From the NCBI GenBank assembly GCA_964016885.1, contig OZ024740.1:371318001-371382000 (forward strand): 64,000 nt of DNA. Reading direction: 5' to 3'. The DNA comes from Eledone cirrhosa. Lineage: Eukaryota. Under the pieces are notes generated by a model that saw nothing but the letters and a program-made list of their open reading frames with translations, did no database searches and had not been told where the DNA came from. How positions within the stretch are numbered: position 1 is the stretch's first letter; the number at the start of each line of letters is the position of its first letter. A program made the position numbers and the translations under genes. Below, piece after piece: positions 3,622-61,925 of this stretch.

Positions 3622-3657
3622 TCTTCTGATGAAGGATTAGTGTCTGAAACATTTAGA
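3622..3657 (+). ncRNA. Degenerate minimal hammerhead ribozyme motif (Penelope pLTR type)
   Basis: TCTT-CTGATGA-AGGAT tagt GTCT-GAAAC-ATT-TAGA. P3 is apparently CpG-decayed from ACGT. A sister copy lies at 34484-34519. Confidence 0.4.
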
Positions 3658-13402: not shown

Positions 13403-16400
13403 TTTGAGTCTCAGTCATTGATGTTAGTTAACTGGAAAGTTTGTTGAAATGAATATCAAGCCACTACCTGCAGCCTCAGATATTCAGGACGTATCGGAGG
13501 GTTTTTGCTATTCCCAGCAAGCATGCCTTTTGAAACGTTCCAAAAAGCGTGAAGGGGCCAATTTTCTTTAACCATCCCTGGAAACATTTTGAGATAGTCC
13601 CTAGTGCGCCTATGACAATCGGGACCACTTTGACTTCATGGCAGTTCCAAATCCTTTTTACCTCCCAATTTAAGTCCTGGTATCGGTTAATTTTCTCCCT
13701 CTCCTTCTCTTGCACTCTCGTGTCGAATGGGCAGGCCACATCCACAATCAGGCACGATCTTTTTTCTTTGTCCACAACCACCAGGTCAGGTCTATTGTGT
13801 TCCAGTTTCTTGTCCATCTGTATCCTAAAATCCCACAGCACCTTCACCTGATCGTTTTCTATCACCGACTCTGGCTTATGCTCATACCATTTCTCAGAAT
13901 GTGGTAAATTGTTTACTTTGCATAGGTGCCAGTGGACCACCCTGCCCATCACATCATGTCTCCAGCCCTTATAGTGAGTCTGGGCTAGGTGTTTACACTC
14001 GGATACAATGTGAGCCATAGTCTCCTCTCTCTCTCCACAGATCCTGCACAGTGGGCTAGCCTCCTCCTTGTAAATATGGTGTTTCAACCACTTTGTTTTG
14101 AGGGCCTGCTCTTGCGCAGCCATTAACATTCCTTCTGTAGCCTTTTTAAGGTCTCCTCTTTTCAACCAGTTCCATGTCTGTGGATCTCTGAATTTAGTTT
14201 TCTCAAAGAAGGTACTATGAAGGGATTTTTCATGAAGGTTGCTCTTCCTCCTTGTTGTTATTTCCTCCTTGGACATCCCCTGTTCTATTGTCCTCTCCTT
14301 TAGTACAGTTCTGAGCATTGGCTCCTTACTATCAGTCACGTATTTGTGTAGGTTGTTTTTCTCCATCTGAACACAGTCCTCTATGCTGATAAGACTTCTT
14401 CCACCTTCAGATCTCCTTAAGTAGAGTCTATCGACATCACTCCTCTTGTGGAACATGTTGTAGATAGTCAATAGCTTCCTAGTCTTCCTATCCATTTCTT
14501 TTTGTTCAGCAACATTCCATCTCAGAATTCCCGCACTGTACCTAATAATAGACGCAGCTCGGGAATTTACTGCACTTATGGCATTCCTACTGTTCAGATG
14601 TGACTTTAATACGCTCCTTACTCTCCGAATGTATTCAGTTCTTATCAATTCCTTCATTTTTTTGTTCTCGATGTCATCAGCCTCCAGAACACCCAAATAC
14701 TTGTATCCTTCTTCAGTGTCAATTTCCTTTATCATCTCACCTGTTGGTACCTGGATTCCGTTACTTCTGCTCAATTTACCCCTCTTCATCACAAGGACTC
14801 CACACTTACTAATACCAAATTGCATACATATATCATTGCTGAAAATACGGACAGTGTCAACAAGCACATCCAACTCCTTCTCATTCTTCCCGAAGAGCTT
14901 AAGATCGTCCATGAAGAGGAGGTGATTGATGGTAAGCCCTCCCTTTCCCAACTGTATCCTGCTCTCACTTTTCGCAGTATACTGGTCAGGGGCATCAGGG
15001 CAAGGACAAACAACAGAGGGGACAGACTATCTCCCTGGAAGATACGTCTCTTGATCTTCACGCTTCCCAAGGATTCTCCAGCTGATGTTAACTCTGTTTC
15101 CCAGGACTTCATACTTTTGCCCAACAACTGTCTTTGCCTTTCATCCTTACGGGGTCGATAAAATAAAGTACCAGTAATGTACTGGGTAATTGCTGGCCTT
15201 GTGCCAAAAGTAGAAACAGTTATCTGCCACCTTGAAGATCTCCAAGCTTTTGGTGATCCAAGAATGAGGCACCATGTCAAATGCCTTTTTGTAATCTATC
15301 CATCCCATGGCAAGACCAGGGTGTCTCCTCTTGCAATTCCTCATTACCATCTTATCAATAAGTAACTGGTCTTTTTTACCATGGGACTTCTTTCGGCATC
15401 CTTTCTGTTCGTCCGGTAACAAGTTGTTTATGTGGAGGTGATGGTAGATTTCCTCAGACATAATGCTTGTTAACAGTTTCCACATTACGGACAGACACGT
15501 GATAGGCCTATAGTTGGTAACATCATTACCCTTGATTCGGTCTTTCATTACCAGAACTGAGGTACCTTTTGTCAACCACTCTGGTGCCTCACCCGACATC
15601 AAGCAGTCATTGAACATGGTTGTCAGTTTCGGGTGGAGGATGTTATATTTTTAATCCAATACCCCTGCACACCATCTGGGCCTGGTGATTTCCAGTTGGT
15701 TAGTTTTTTGGCCTGCCCTTCAAGAGTTTCAACTGTGATACTCAAATCAGTTTGTTGGTGTGCCTGTTCACTAATCTCTTTTTGAACTGTCTCAATCCAC
15801 ACTGCCTGACTATTATGTTCAACATCCTGCTCCCATATTCCTCTCCAGAATGTCTTAGTCTGTTTCCCCTCAGGGATCAAGTTGTTGCCTCTTTCTTTCC
15901 CTTCAAGCTGTCCAAATAACATCTTCTGGTTGTTGTCAGACATGCGGTTCTGTCTATACTGACTGACTCTGTTCTCATATCGCCTAATCTTTGCACTTTT
16001 TGCTACAATGTGTTGCTTCAGTTCCTCTATGATAATATTTAGCTTTAATCCCCCTAGTTTTGTACTTTATTTCCAATCTATCTTTAGTGTCTATGTTTTG
16101 TAATGTCCCAGTAAGGACATTAAGCTTTCCAATGTCTTTTTTCATTTCCTTGATTTGACCATTCAGTCGTTTCTTCCACCAAGGTTCTGATCTTTCTTGT
16201 TTGTTGTTTCCTCTCATTTTTATGCCAAGTAATTTCCTCACCGCATTTGCTGTTGCTTTGAGGATATTGTTGTACTGGTGAAGGCTCCTTGCCTCAAGGT
16301 ATGGGATGACTTTGTTTACCTTAGCTGTTGGTTCTTTTAACTTTTTCCTGTCTTCAAATCTTAGGTTCATAGGTTTCCCACTATCATTGTTCATTTCATC

Positions 16401-25864: not shown

Positions 25865-26560
25865 TATATGAAGCCTGCATGCTCCGATGGATGTGTACAA
25901 GTACATAAACGGCAAATCATAAATGAACTGAAAGAGAAACTGAGCATAAAAGGGATCAGATGCAGTGTGCAAGAGAAGAGATTGCATTGGTATGGCCATG
26001 TGATCCATATGAAGGATGACAGCTGTATAAAAAGGTGCAGGGTGATCAAAGTTGATAGAAGCTATGGAATATGAAGACCCAGGAAGACCTGGGATGAGGT
26101 GATAAAAGCTGACCTTGCACAATTGCACCTCTCAAAGACAATGGCATAGGATTGAGATCTTTGGCAGTAATACAGAAGTCCTGCCTTACCATGTGCACAG
26201 ACTGAAGCATACATCTAGTAGGCATCTCTTAACCACTATCTTTCCTCTCACTACCATTCACCTCCCTTACCCTAACACCCCACCCACATCTGATCACACC
26301 ACCCTTACGCTGTAAAGTTGTTGTGTTGGTATCACAACAAAAAGCACTCAACCTACACTATAAAGTGGTTGTGTAGGTGTCACGACAAAAAGCACACAGC
26401 ACACACTGTAAATGTGGTTGGTGTTAGGAAGGGAAACCAAAATCAGAAACAGTTCTGTATGAGCAAGACACGGTCACCTAACCCAACTTGCTTCAAAAAG
26501 GACAACCTGGCTAACCCATGCTTGCATGGAAAATAGATGTTAAATGATGATGATGATAAT
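25865..26560 (+). mobile_element. RTE LINE 3' fragment (ORF C-terminus and 3'UTR)
   Basis: ELKEKLSIKGIRCSVQEKRLHWYGHVIHM...RPRKTWDEVIKAD, ending in (GAT)n. Confidence 0.8.
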
Positions 26561-30959: not shown

Positions 30960-31737
30960 ATAGCTCTAATTACATCCTGTAAATTTGTCATGTTGGTTAG
31001 ACAACAAAAGCTTCTAGTCCACCCTGTAAGCTGGTCATGTTTGTGACACGACATGAGGCACCCAGCGCACCCTGTAATGTGATCGTGATGGAGTCACAAC
31101 AAAAGCACCCAGTCCAACAGGTAAAAAGGTTGTAATGGACAAATGTAGCCATTTTTGTAAAGTTGTTGCTTTGGTGTTGCAACAAAAAGTGCTCAGTCCA
31201 CACTGTAAAGTGGTCATGTTGGTAAAACGATAAAAAGTGCCCAGTCCACACTGTAAAGTGGTTGTGTAGGTGTCATGACAAAATGTGCCCAGCCCACACT
31301 ATTAACCCTTTAGTATTTAAACCGGCTGAATCTGACCAGAATTCTCTCACCTCTTTCTGTTCAAACCAGCTGTAACCGGAAGTTCATACTTATGATAAGG
31401 TATTGTTCTCAAAATTAATAACAACAACATCTCATAGAATTGATAATTAAGTGAGATAATTATGTGAAGTAAAGCCTTTTCTGTGAAAATACAATAATAT
31501 ATATAGAGTAATATAAATGCTAAAGGGTTAAGGGATTGTTTTGATGCCATGATAAAAGGCATCCAGTCCGTGCTGTAAATGTGGTTGGCATTAAGAAGGG
31601 CACCCAGCCATAGAAACCAAGCCAGAAACAGTTCTGTATGAGCATCACATGGTTATCTGATTCACAATGGGACAACTTATCTAACCCAGGCTAGCATGGA
31701 AAAATGAATGTTAAACAGTGATGATGATGATGATGAT
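30960..31737 (+). mobile_element. RTE-derived 3'UTR with about 50-bp internal tandem units, interrupted by a MITE
   Basis: Repeated cacccagtccacactgtaaagtgg units, ending catggaaaaatgaatgttaaacagtgatgatgat. Confidence 0.65.
31306..31527. mobile_element. piggyBac-like MITE with TTAA TSD
   Basis: TTAA|CCCTTTAGTATTTA ... TAAATGCTAAAGGG|TTAA. Confidence 0.8.
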
Positions 31738-38134: not shown

Positions 38135-38523
38135 CATTTCATCATTTCATTTTACGTTCGCTTTTTCCCTGCTTGCAAGAGTGGGACGGGAACTGATTCT
38201 GGCTTGATTTCTACAGCTGGATGCCCTTCCTAACACCACCCTCATTTACAGTGAGTGCTGGGGGCTTTTTTTCCGTGGCGCCTACACGTCCACTTTACAC
38301 TGTGGGCTGGGATGTTTTTTGCCGTGGCACCTCCACGACCACTTTGCAGTGGAATGATATGGACACCAGTCCCTATCATCTCATTTCTACAGCTGAGTAA
38401 ACTGGAGAAATGTGAAATAAAGTGTCTTGCTCAAAGAAACAACACATCACCCGGTCCGAGAATTGAACTCACAACCTTTCGATTGCAAGACCAATGCTCT
38501 AACCACTAAGCCATGTGCCTCCA
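38135..38523 (-). mobile_element. Chimeric CORE-head / RTE-tail SINE
   Basis: Near-identical to 39554-39904 and 44681-45014, with one extra 50-bp unit. Confidence 0.75.
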
Positions 38524-41962: not shown

Positions 41963-42820
41963 AAACATCCTGCCAGCATGCAAACATCCTGCCGGCATGC
42001 AAACATCCTGCCAGCATGGAAACATCCTGCCAGCATGGAAACATCCTGCCAGCATGCAAACATCCTGCCAGCATGGAAACATCCTGCCAGCATGGAAACA
42101 TCCTGCCAGCATGCAAACATCCTGCCAGCATGGAAACATCCTGCCAGCATGGAAACATCCTGCCAGCATGGAAACATCCTGCCAGCATGGAAACATCCTG
42201 CCAGCATGCAAACATCCTGCCAGCATGCAAACATCCTGCCAGCATGCAAACATCCTGCCAGCATGGAAACATCCTGCCAGCATGGAAACATCCTGCCAGC
42301 ATGGAAACATCCTGCCAGCATGGAAACATCCTGCCAGCATGGAAACATCCTGCCAGCATGGAAACATCCTGCCAGCATGGAAACATCCTGCCAGCATGCA
42401 AACATCCTGCCAGCATGGAAACATCCTGCCAGCATGGAAACATCCTGCCAGCATGGAAACATCCTGCCAGCATGGAAACATCCTGCCAGCATGGAAACAT
42501 CCTGCCAGCATGCAAACATCCTGCCAGCATGGAAACATCCTGCCAGCATGGAAACATTCTGCCAGCATGCAAACATCCTGCCAGCATGGAAACATCCTGC
42601 CAGCATGGAAACATCCTGCCAGCATGCAAACATCCTGCCAGCATGGAAACATCCTGCCAGCATGGAAACATCCTGCCAGCATGGAAACATCCTGCCAGCA
42701 TGCAAACATCCTGCCAGCATGCAAACATCCTGCCAGCATGGAAACATCCTGCCAGCATGCAAACATCCTGCCAGCATGGAAACATCCTGCCAGCATGGAA
42801 ACAACCTGCCAGCATGGAAA
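41963..42820. repeat. 19-bp minisatellite AAACATCCTGCCAGCATG(G/C), about 45 copies
   Basis: Directly visible and spacer-free. It explains the six long pseudo-ORFs. Confidence 0.97.
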
Positions 42821-58896: not shown

Positions 58897-58932
<36 letters not shown>

Positions 58933-58986
58933 AGTATGTATGTATACGTACATACATACATATATGTATACAGACGTACAGTAGCA

Positions 58987-59038
<52 letters not shown>

Positions 59039-59665
59039 CAGGTACACATACATATATGCACGCATCAATTTAGCGGATGCTTATTATAACGCCGCTTTGT
59101 TCGTTTGTCAACAAACTGAAAGCTGTTCAGTTTGTTGACAAACGAACAAAGCGGCGTTATAATAAGCGTCCGCTAAACTGATGCGTGCATATATGTATGT
59201 GTACCTGTATATATATATATATATATATATATATGCATGCTACTGTACGTCTGTATACATATATGTATGTACGTATACATACATACTTACATTTAAGTAA
59301 GTGCCATACTAAGAGTGAGAAATGAAATTTCGTTTTCATTTTTTTCAACTTATCGTTTTCGGTATGCCTGACCGATTTAACTCACTCAATATGCAAATTA
59401 GGCTGCTCAGCCGTTAATTTTCATAAGGAAAGTATATACTTTCGAACGTTCAACTATCTGGCAGATGGGTAAACGGTGCTGATGATAGCTAACAAGCTTG
59501 AAACTAGTACATCGTTCCTGTGTCAGTGTTGAACAAAAAGGTGACGTGGTTGCCTTAACACCGTATGGCATAAATTCAGGCTGTTCAGTTTGTTTACAAA
59601 CGAACAAAGCGGCGTTATAATAAGCGTCCGCTAAACTGATGCGTGCATATATGTATGTGTACCTG

Positions 59666-59731
<66 letters not shown>

Positions 59732-59851
59732 TGCTACTGTATACATATATGTATGTACGTATACATACATACTTACATTTAAGTAAGTGCCATACTAAGA
59801 GTGAGAAATGAAATTTCGTTTTCATTTTTTTCAACTTATATATATATATAT
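58897..59851 (+). mobile_element. Non-coding Penelope-pLTR/retrozyme-like element: inverted arm plus 1.5 tandem units, with TSD
   Basis: Inverted arms 58928-59119 and 59125-59292. Direct repeat of 59123-59351 at 59581-59838 (458-bp period). GTGTAGTCAGTAA occurs at 58884-58896 and 59852-59864. Confidence 0.75.
59472..59516 (+). ncRNA. Type I hammerhead ribozyme
   Basis: P1 AACGGTG/CATCGTT, CTGATGA, P2 tAGCT-AACA-AGCTt, GAAA, P3 ACTAGT, GUA site. Confidence 0.75.
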
Positions 59852-60387: not shown

Positions 60388-60420
<33 letters not shown>

Positions 60421-60421
<1 letters not shown>

Positions 60422-61117
60422 ACTAGTTCAATGTCTGGCTTTCTGGAGAATAGAGGAAAGGTGTTTCCTCAAAAACCAGTATGACTCTAAAAACCGGTTT
60501 GTCTGTGTGTTTACATACAGAATAGCTGGACACTCACAGTAAAGTGATCAGTGAAAAACTCGGTACATCTACATATGTATACGTGTGTGTATTCATATGC
60601 ATACTAGTATTTCAGTATACATATGTGGATGTACATTTTTAACTTAATTGTTTAAGCGTCAGTCATACAAAAGTGAGTTACAAACGAAACGAAATTTAAT
60701 TTCGTTTCGTTATTTGTTTTTATCCTCTCCGTTGAACCGGTACGTACTCACGCTCTATGCAAATTAGTCTGCCCACTACTAATTTTCATAGAAAAAGCAT
60801 ATAACGATATGTGCTTTTACGATTCTCTAGAAAGGCCGGAAGATAGGTAAATATTGCTGATGAGATGTAACAACATCGAAACTAGTTCAATATTCCTTGT
60901 CTGGCTTTCTGGAGAATAGAGGAAAGGTGTTTCCTCAAAAACCAGTATGACTCTAAAAACCGGTTTGTCTGTGTGTTTACATACAGAATAGCTGGACACT
61001 CACAGTAAAGTGATCAGTGAAAAACTCGGTACATCTACATATGTATACGTGTGTGTATTCATATGCATACTAGTATTTCAGTATACATATGTGGATGTAC
61101 ATTTTTAACTTAATTGT
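60421..61117 (+). mobile_element. Retrozyme-like partial tandem (1.5 units, about 460-bp period)
   Basis: 60421-60651 is repeated at 60880-61117, and the first copy begins at the 3' half of the hammerhead. Flanked by (TA)n. Confidence 0.75.
60850..60894 (+). ncRNA. Intact type I hammerhead ribozyme
   Basis: P1 AATATTG/CAATATT, CTGATGA, P2 GATGT-AACA-ACATC, GAAA, P3 ACTAGT, GUU cleavage site at 60885-60887. Confidence 0.88.
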
Positions 61118-61364
61118 ATATATACATTCATATATATATATATGAATGTATAGTATATATATGAATGTATAGTATATATATATATAAATATATAGTATAT
61201 ATATATGAATGTATAGTATATATATATATGTATATATATGAATGTATAGTATATTTGGTAATATACTGTATGTTTAATTAAAAACATTTTGAAGACCTTG
61301 CGCTATTATTTTAAGGTAGTGACTATGTCACTTACTTCTTTTTTCAGCAAAGGAAGGGAGAGAA

Positions 61365-61404
61365 TCTGACAGATCTGTTTCACACTGTTGGTGTTCCTCA
61401 GAGC
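61365..61404 (-). ncRNA. Hammerhead ribozyme (core intact, one P1 mismatch)
   Basis: GCT-CTGAGGA-ACAC caaca GTGT-GAAAC AGATCT GTC-AGA. Confidence 0.6.
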
Positions 61405-61722
61405 AACGTACTCGCCGACCTCTGCCGAAAATTATAGAGGCTGGATTCTTAAAGAATTCCAGTAATAACCAGGAACTGATTATACAGAGCGATTGCCGGT
61501 CCAACAAAAATAAAAAAATTAGGATTGGTGCTCATCGCTATTTCAGAGCACCAACAAAAATTAAAAATTAGGATTGGTGCTCTGAAATAGCGATGAACAC
61601 CAATCCTAATTTTTAATTTTTGTTGGACCGGCAATCGCTCTGTATAATCAGTTCCTGATTATTACTGAAATTCTATAAGAATCCAGCCTCTATAATTTTC
61701 GGCAGAGGTCGGCGAGTACGTT

Positions 61723-61762
61723 GCTCTGAGGGACACCAACAGTGTGAAACAGATCTGTCAGC
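61723..61762 (+). ncRNA. Hammerhead ribozyme (P1 intact, A9G core change)
   Basis: GCT-CTGAGGG-ACAC caaca GTGT-GAAAC AGATCT GTC-AGC. Confidence 0.6.
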
Positions 61763-61925
61763 TTCTCTCCCTTCCTTTGCTGAAAAAAGAAGTAAGTGAC
61801 ATAGTCACTACTTTAAAATAATAGCGCAAGGTCTTCAAAATGTTTTTAATTAAACATACAGTATATTACCAAATATACTATACATACATTCATGTATACA
61901 CCGCTATTTCAGAGCACCAATCCTA

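Follow-up and report, generated by a model that had tools for sequence, protein, structure and literature searches.

A single-armed hammerhead retrozyme copy flanked by (TA)n, from a family whose insertions carry a Penelope-like footprint

The window, the whole stretch of 64,000 nucleotides that was analysed, contains at 60421-61117 a copy of a repeat with a type I hammerhead ribozyme motif on the plus strand. In brief, the copy is 1.5 units long, single-armed and 5'-truncated, with one complete core. Its features are given below, and unit positions are counted from the first base 3' of the cut, which is position 1.

60391..60420, no strand assigned: (TA)n target run in the left (5') flank; family ends run into (TA)n
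60421..60432, plus strand: 5'-truncation junction, a half ribozyme with the palindromic helix III loop; the upstream cut site lies after 60428, and a 7-nt deletion relative to the family unit follows
60421..60887, plus strand: first retrozyme unit, from -8 to the cut (466-nt family unit)
60650..60723, plus strand: tail, bounded by the fixed 3' termini at unit 228-230 and at unit 302, internal in this copy, with a long hairpin at 60683-60711
60757..60764, plus strand: octamer motif in a 12-nt block that matches the sister family exactly; possible (putative) internal promoter element
60839..60910, plus strand: extended helix I around the ribozyme, a bulged extension, from an Rfam HH9 match and fold z score
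60850..60894, plus strand: type I hammerhead; helix III of 1 bp plus palindromic tetraloop; cut predicted after 60887 (GUU)
60850-60856 with 60888-60894: P1, 7 Watson-Crick pairs
60857-60863: CUGAUGA core
60864-60868 with 60873-60877: P2, 5 bp, G-C closing pair
60878-60881: GAAA
60885-60887: GUU triplet
60888..61117, plus strand: second unit, incomplete; its end at 61115-61117 is the short one of the fixed 3' termini of the family; TA-rich sequence comes next

The motif has the conserved core, three helices in type I order and an NUH triplet. The first-pass annotation of an intact hammerhead, with the 7-bp P1, the G-C-closed 5-bp P2, the core and GUU, was confirmed at 60850-60894. A strict hammerhead descriptor gave one match in the window and none in 19.2 Mb of shuffles, and the match is therefore not a chance one. 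An Rfam scan of the window at the gathering score reported no family. Hammerhead_HH9, a specific vertebrate-type model, resembles 60839-60910 at E=6.8e-7 and 36.5 bits, below its gathering score of 52. In the energy model the 45-nt core alone did not reach the active form (z=-1.5), and 60835-60910, which includes the extended helix I, folded at z=-3.1. Helices I and II covary: both sides are changed in 7 of 16 ribozyme pairs among eight related sequences of the retrozyme and a sister family, a count inflated by their relatedness.

Helix III of the window hammerhead is a single A-U pair closed by a palindromic CUAG loop. Slow cutting is expected from a GUU triplet combined with a 1-bp helix III. 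Such palindromic helix III types are described as impeding cleavage of the monomer and functioning as dimers (PMC4209133). The helix III found here is of the newt and axolotl type (axolotl HHR_Amex1), reported as efficient only as a dimer; an axolotl monomer of similar hammerhead type was cleaved to 6% in 1 h, and dimers far more (PMC7229834).

The left end of the copy does not coincide with the cut but precedes it by 8 nt. It is indeed the P3 and cleavage-site half of the same ribozyme, as had been noted, and one 12-mer is present at both 60421 and 60880. The period had been put at about 460 nt. This holds for the window copy, where it is 459 nt, and not for the family, where it is 466 nt, because the first unit in the window lacks 7 nt just after 60432, within the 3' strand of P1 and its extension. 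Over unit positions 13-466 this first unit shows 3 differences from the nearest sampled unit. Earlier interest had centred on the left boundary; the conserved boundary is actually the right end at 61115-61117.

Three such hammerhead families lie within 3 kb of each other, nested in TA runs. The region 58928-59840 is a two-armed copy of the sister hammerhead family, with a core at 59479 and a GUA triplet. The sister unit is about 474 nt in locus L007, and the 3' ends of the sister family likewise fall at two sites, separated by about 57-60 nt. A 13-nt word occurs on both flanks of this copy (58884 and 59852) and may be a target-site duplication. The octamer at 60757-60764 recurs at 59391, inside a 12-nt block identical in both families and 120-130 nt upstream of the cut. 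We presume a likeness between the octamer in the retrozyme and that of the newt satellite 2 promoter. Newt satellite 2 is described as having an snRNA-type internal promoter (PMC2220036).

The third back-to-back element, at 61231-61896, has 287-nt arms that are 96% complementary and a hammerhead-like core at 61401 on the minus strand, with a longer palindromic helix III; at least 55 matches to it were found, from 40 scored of 3,071 candidates. Further relaxed hammerhead-like cores lie at 3626 (plus), 34515 (minus) and 44505 (plus), the first two being 85% alike over 82 nt and recurring in other loci. The window also encodes a 516-aa open frame at 13479-15026 on the minus strand with a weak zf-RVT match (E=2.6e-4, below the cut-off), probably a LINE fragment. 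Positions 41963-42820 hold a 19-bp repeat in 45 tandem copies with 97% matches, and a dispersed 48-49-bp tandem repeat family occurs at 204-309, 26306-26420, 31171-31300 and 38245-38345.

The family is a 466-nt non-coding repeat unit (length taken from locus L005) that carries a hammerhead and has the features of a non-LTR retrozyme. A DNA search of the surrounding 3.0-Gb genome gave at least 219 matches, from 40 scored of 306 candidates, many of them in tandem and back-to-back arrays. The core pattern common to the retrozyme and the sister family occurs 23,560 times genome-wide, and the control pattern 0 times. In the retrozyme family the core is intact with GUU or GUC in 170 of 185 variant-by-locus rows, in which overlapping loci are counted repeatedly. 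With 23,560 intact cores in the genome, those of the sister family included, the window copy is an ordinary young family member and not a special one.

No frame of at least 250 aa was found in the arrays in an ORF scan of the window and loci L001-L210, and the 466-nt unit has no ORF for a reverse transcriptase (RT) with a GIY-YIG domain. Since the unit is 466 nt long and lacks such a frame, the family does not qualify as an autonomous Penelope-like element (PLE). Tandem units of a few hundred nt with one type I ribozyme per unit are found at many loci. The circularized L005 unit is predicted to fold at -155 kcal/mol, compared to -94 +/- 6 for 60 shuffles (z=-10.6), none of which was as stable. 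By these sequence features the family fits the non-LTR retrozymes as described in PMC7229834 and 10.64898/2026.07.22.740005.

Array sizes and ages vary. Locus L297 holds 18 identical units spanning both arms, and one retrozyme array (L046-L048, G000:C5:87625000-87686400, ends fetched) seemingly exceeds 60 kb. Older retrozyme arrays (L146, L291-L294) show higher-order patterns of 3 to 7 units, that is, satellite growth from a retroelement.

The 3' ends are fixed at two sites about 73 nt apart, a short one at unit 228-230 and a long one at 302, and both run into (TA)n. The window copy ends at the short site. Exact junctions into (TA)n number 396 (short) and 2,056 (long) genome-wide, the two patterns not being equally strict. 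End types were scored at the first listed junctions on contig C1, comprising 70 short-seeded and 87 long-seeded loci with 3 wider re-fetches; a sample almost wholly from C1 and selected for exact end motifs favours young copies. Among 145 resolved seeded ends, the opposite arm lies at a fixed site in 97, and is then always of the other type. The remainder comprises 30 without a second arm, 8 ending elsewhere and 10 that ran off the locus. Counted as distinct insertions, 4 of which were seeded from both sides, 93 of 93 have one short and one long end.

Resident RT plus GIY-YIG elements with open frames are present (10,597 first-look candidates, of which 150 were scored; confirmed by Pfam), and they show the same rule. 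In a 900-aa family, eight of nine inverted pairs have one short and one long end and one pair is ambiguous; the tail is 44-48 nt and ends into (TA)n. Two other families have tails of about 54 and 63 nt, each from a single pair counted by eye. In PMC11167929 a Penelope protein is described as nicking both strands and extending them, with two internal RNA start sites as the limits of the tail; PMC8557442 and PMC3846280 name the tail and the inverted copy as hallmarks of PLEs. The retrozyme family has this architecture: two 3' termini bounding a tail, an inverted 5'-truncated arm and an AT-rich target. It should be noted that PLE tails are reported as 30-40 bp (PMC8557442) and that the retrozyme tail of 72-74 nt is about double that length, which counts against a PLE model.

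In 20 of 58 arm pairs neither arm fits inside the other, and so neither can derive from the other; RNA was likely the template on which each of them was primed. These pairs rule out fold-back copying as a general source of the second arm. It may occur occasionally, since 7 pairs have arms that stop within 10 nt of each other against 2.6 expected (p=0.024). In 64 two-armed copies, four shared flank words were found, none of them convincing as target-site duplications.

Among the GIY-YIG and RT loci that were sampled, none had a terminal repeat or tail homologous to that of the retrozyme, and no coding partner emerged. BLAST and descriptor searches of 50 GIY-YIG loci gave no partner, the clear matches listed being retrozyme or sister insertions. 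The 3' flanks of GIY-YIG/RT loci grouped by family, plus two further families found by protein search, likewise gave none. Alignment of tail against tail with three PLE families gave scores that 23, 157 and 944 shuffles out of 1000 also attained. A young Penelope-like family at L335-L336 (G000:C2:200824500-200841000) has many open 900-905-aa RT plus GIY-YIG frames, a 3,127-nt tandem period and inverted pairs, and is a candidate enzyme source. Frames of resident PLE proteins are also present in L241 and L243.

Based on these observations, we consider it probable that the window holds a single-armed, 5'-truncated non-LTR retrozyme copy, likely put into (TA)n by a borrowed Penelope-type reverse transcriptase/endonuclease from a likely circular RNA. 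In brief, tandem arrays would be transcribed, and neighbouring ribozymes would pair via the palindromic helix III and excise monomers, to be closed by a host ligase. A Penelope protein would nick both strands of (TA)n, each nick would prime at one of the two internal RNA sites, and both enzymes would keep circling the template until they dissociate, after which the cDNAs would be joined back to back (twin target-primed reverse transcription). A minority of templates would likely be linear with their 5' end at the cut. The window copy would have kept the short-site arm only, after 1.5 turns.

The nature of the template was examined in 54 insertions with at least two complete units (315 units), leaving out a microsatellite-like stretch at unit 140-165. 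Units differ by 2.2 within arms, 2.7 between the arms of an insertion and a median of 17 between insertions, and 45 of the 54 insertions have distinct haplotypes. In young arrays the units are homogeneous throughout, in one arm as in the other. In 9 of 34 insertions with at least three units, 17 variants are fixed in all units and yet private, where private means private among the 54 sampled insertions, so that homogeneous multimer transcripts from unsampled arrays are possible. Among 18 two-armed insertions 99 sites are polymorphic, and just 2 of these, both at one A-run, are common to the two arms. The homogeneous units, the private variants and the strong predicted circular fold favour a single-unit circle as template. 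Older arrays contain private multi-unit mosaics, i.e. later duplication at the DNA level. Multimeric circles were considered for the period-4 and period-6 patterns in old arrays and rejected, because the variants are private and mosaic and, in two-armed insertions, lie in a single arm. A wrap-round contig in sequencing run X6 was set aside as a sign of circles, since the runs are contigs of unrecorded kind.

The same Penelope-driven insertion could also have used an uncut or partly cut linear multimer transcript, in which case circles would play no part and the ribozyme would trim 5' ends or be idle. Homogeneous young arrays exist as possible sources of such transcripts, ribozyme mutants of a PLE are reported to insert normally in vitro (PMC11167929), and the slow cleavage of the similar axolotl monomer (PMC7229834) points the same way. 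Among 58 clean arm pairs, the long arm stops near the cut in 5; the short arm stops there as well in 4 of the 5 (permutation p=0.010). Such joint stops resemble what two enzymes running off a single cut end would leave, and they fit linear templates. On the other hand, heterogeneous arrays are frequent, but their mosaics are private, and no daughter was seen to carry one in both of its arms; L033, L112 and L188 have private variants fixed across their two arms; and the predicted circular fold is strong. We regard a linear multimer as unlikely and a circular template as the better account of most insertions.

The 5' breakpoints of the copies, whose tabulation had been put forward earlier as a check, are scattered except for a modest excess. 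After duplicate removal there were 217 arms, and leaving out 11 hairpin-ambiguous ends and 3 cut-off duplicates gave 203 arms, from which 194 stops were scored. No arm stops at +1. The zone +1 to +26 holds 23 stops against 10.3 expected, with a rate ratio of 2.7 when arm length is modelled (p=1e-4) and 2.1 when each locus contributes a single arm (median p=0.006); this zone was picked after inspection of the data, and p over a scan of all windows is 0.18. At -12 to 0, the zone of the window copy, there is no excess: 5 of the 194 stops against an expectation of 5.3 (ratio 1.06, p=0.89). Of the 203 arms, 152 cross one cut site or more and 67 of them at least two. The zone -12 to +26 is read through in 297 of 325 passes.

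These counts bear on the first-pass suggestion of a circular or ribozyme-cut template read 1.5 times, with the insertion boundary near the self-cleavage site. The arms that cross the cut agree with repeated reading of a circular or multimeric template, and the 2- to 2.7-fold excess of stops just 3' of the site agrees with a boundary near it. What the counts do not support is the cut end for this copy and the generality of the boundary. In its strong form, with a ribozyme-cut RNA as template, the left boundary of the window copy at the cut and the copy as an active source, we find the proposal very unlikely. It draws on the excess at +1 to +26, on five other arms that start at -12 to -2, and on single-armed copies, which stop in -12 to +26 more often than others (8/30 vs 20/164, Fisher p=0.049, post hoc). 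However, the window copy starts upstream of the cut in a zone without excess, most passes read on, and the copy has only one full core and a 7-nt deletion in its upstream half. A start at -8 cannot be run-off from a cut 5' end because the cut has already been crossed. As a general rule the proposal is largely refuted; a cut-associated boundary applies to a minority of insertions and not to the window copy. Alternatively, the extended helix I could have stalled the enzyme and so produced the excess 3' of the cut.

A satellite or foldback element at the DNA level, spreading by recombination or DNA rolling circles with the ribozyme as a relic, is extremely unlikely. Local multi-unit duplications in older arrays (L146, L293/L294, L031) do show growth at the DNA level after insertion. 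Against such an element, the polarity of the ends follows the ribozyme strand, 3' ends being fixed and 5' ends ragged; RT-coding elements obey the one-long-one-short rule as well; and compensatory changes keep helices I and II.

If the retrozyme reading with a circular template is followed, the window copy is probably a poor candidate for circle production, and probably cannot release a monomer alone, because it has only one full core. In a double hammerhead each core would cut the site of its partner. The full core could pair with the upstream half, where the remnant P1 duplex is predicted at -2.6 vs -2.8 kcal/mol, and cut after 60428, but the site at 60887 has no partner core in cis. A monomer released from this copy would also carry the 7-nt deletion. 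The copy had been named the best candidate for activity, a ranking that is not supported: its single core is of a type reported to act chiefly as a dimer, the motif is one of many thousands, and homogeneous arrays such as the one of 18 identical units would be the better candidates.

It is possible, and just short of probable, that the genomic fossil record of this family reflects a Penelope dimer priming both nicked strands on one RNA circle, strictly one enzyme at each site, the sites 73 nt apart, and both rolling for up to tens of turns, with few insertions ending at a ribozyme-opened template. If true, retrozyme circles would be tied to Penelope machinery by mechanism, with a trace of hammerhead cleavage in the germ line. 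The family is young, with thousands of copies. It combines the two-start-site footprint of PLEs with a one-long-one-short rule that is strict and with an excess of ends at the cut that can be counted, and it provides the exact positions of the starts as well as candidate enzymes resident in the genome.

Metazoan non-LTR retrozymes (Cervera and de la Pena 2020, PMC7229834) are described as non-coding tandem repeats with one type I hammerhead per unit, low GC, a strong predicted circular fold and coexistence with PLEs, in all of which the present family is alike. Its 466-nt unit is above the 170-400 nt of the expressed circles given there, and expression is reported for those elements whereas the 466-nt family is known from its genomic sequence. 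That paper is not known to describe back-to-back arms, two fixed ends or a tail, and it offers PLE mobilisation as a suggestion.

PLEs with a tail and an inverted 5' copy (PMC11167929; PMC8557442; PMC3846280) share with the retrozyme the tandem plus inverted 5'-truncated arm, AT-rich targets and a hammerhead in the repeat, and as described in PMC11167929 they have an optional 3' tail bounded by two start sites, as in the retrozyme. Unlike them, the retrozyme has no ORF, the whole element is the repeat, its ribozyme is canonical rather than minimal, and its tail is 72-74 nt rather than 30-40. For the anole element, cleavage by the ribozyme is reported to be dispensable in vitro (PMC11167929).

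Vertebrate retrozymes, presented as non-autonomous PLE derivatives (10.64898/2026.07.22.740005), belong to the same class and have the same proposed partner. There, PLE mobilisation is proposed from co-occurrence and homology of the terminal repeats, local tandem growth is discussed, and only 1 of 9 frog retrozyme dimers is reported to cut. In the 466-nt family, by contrast, no homologous PLE repeat was found among the sampled loci, and the link is drawn from insertion architecture. Our literature search gave no description of two-armed, tailed retrozyme insertions, a statement on which the supplements of PMC7229834 and of the 2026 preprint may bear. The kind of element is thus already known, and the new part is the family-level footprint of two start sites, one per arm.
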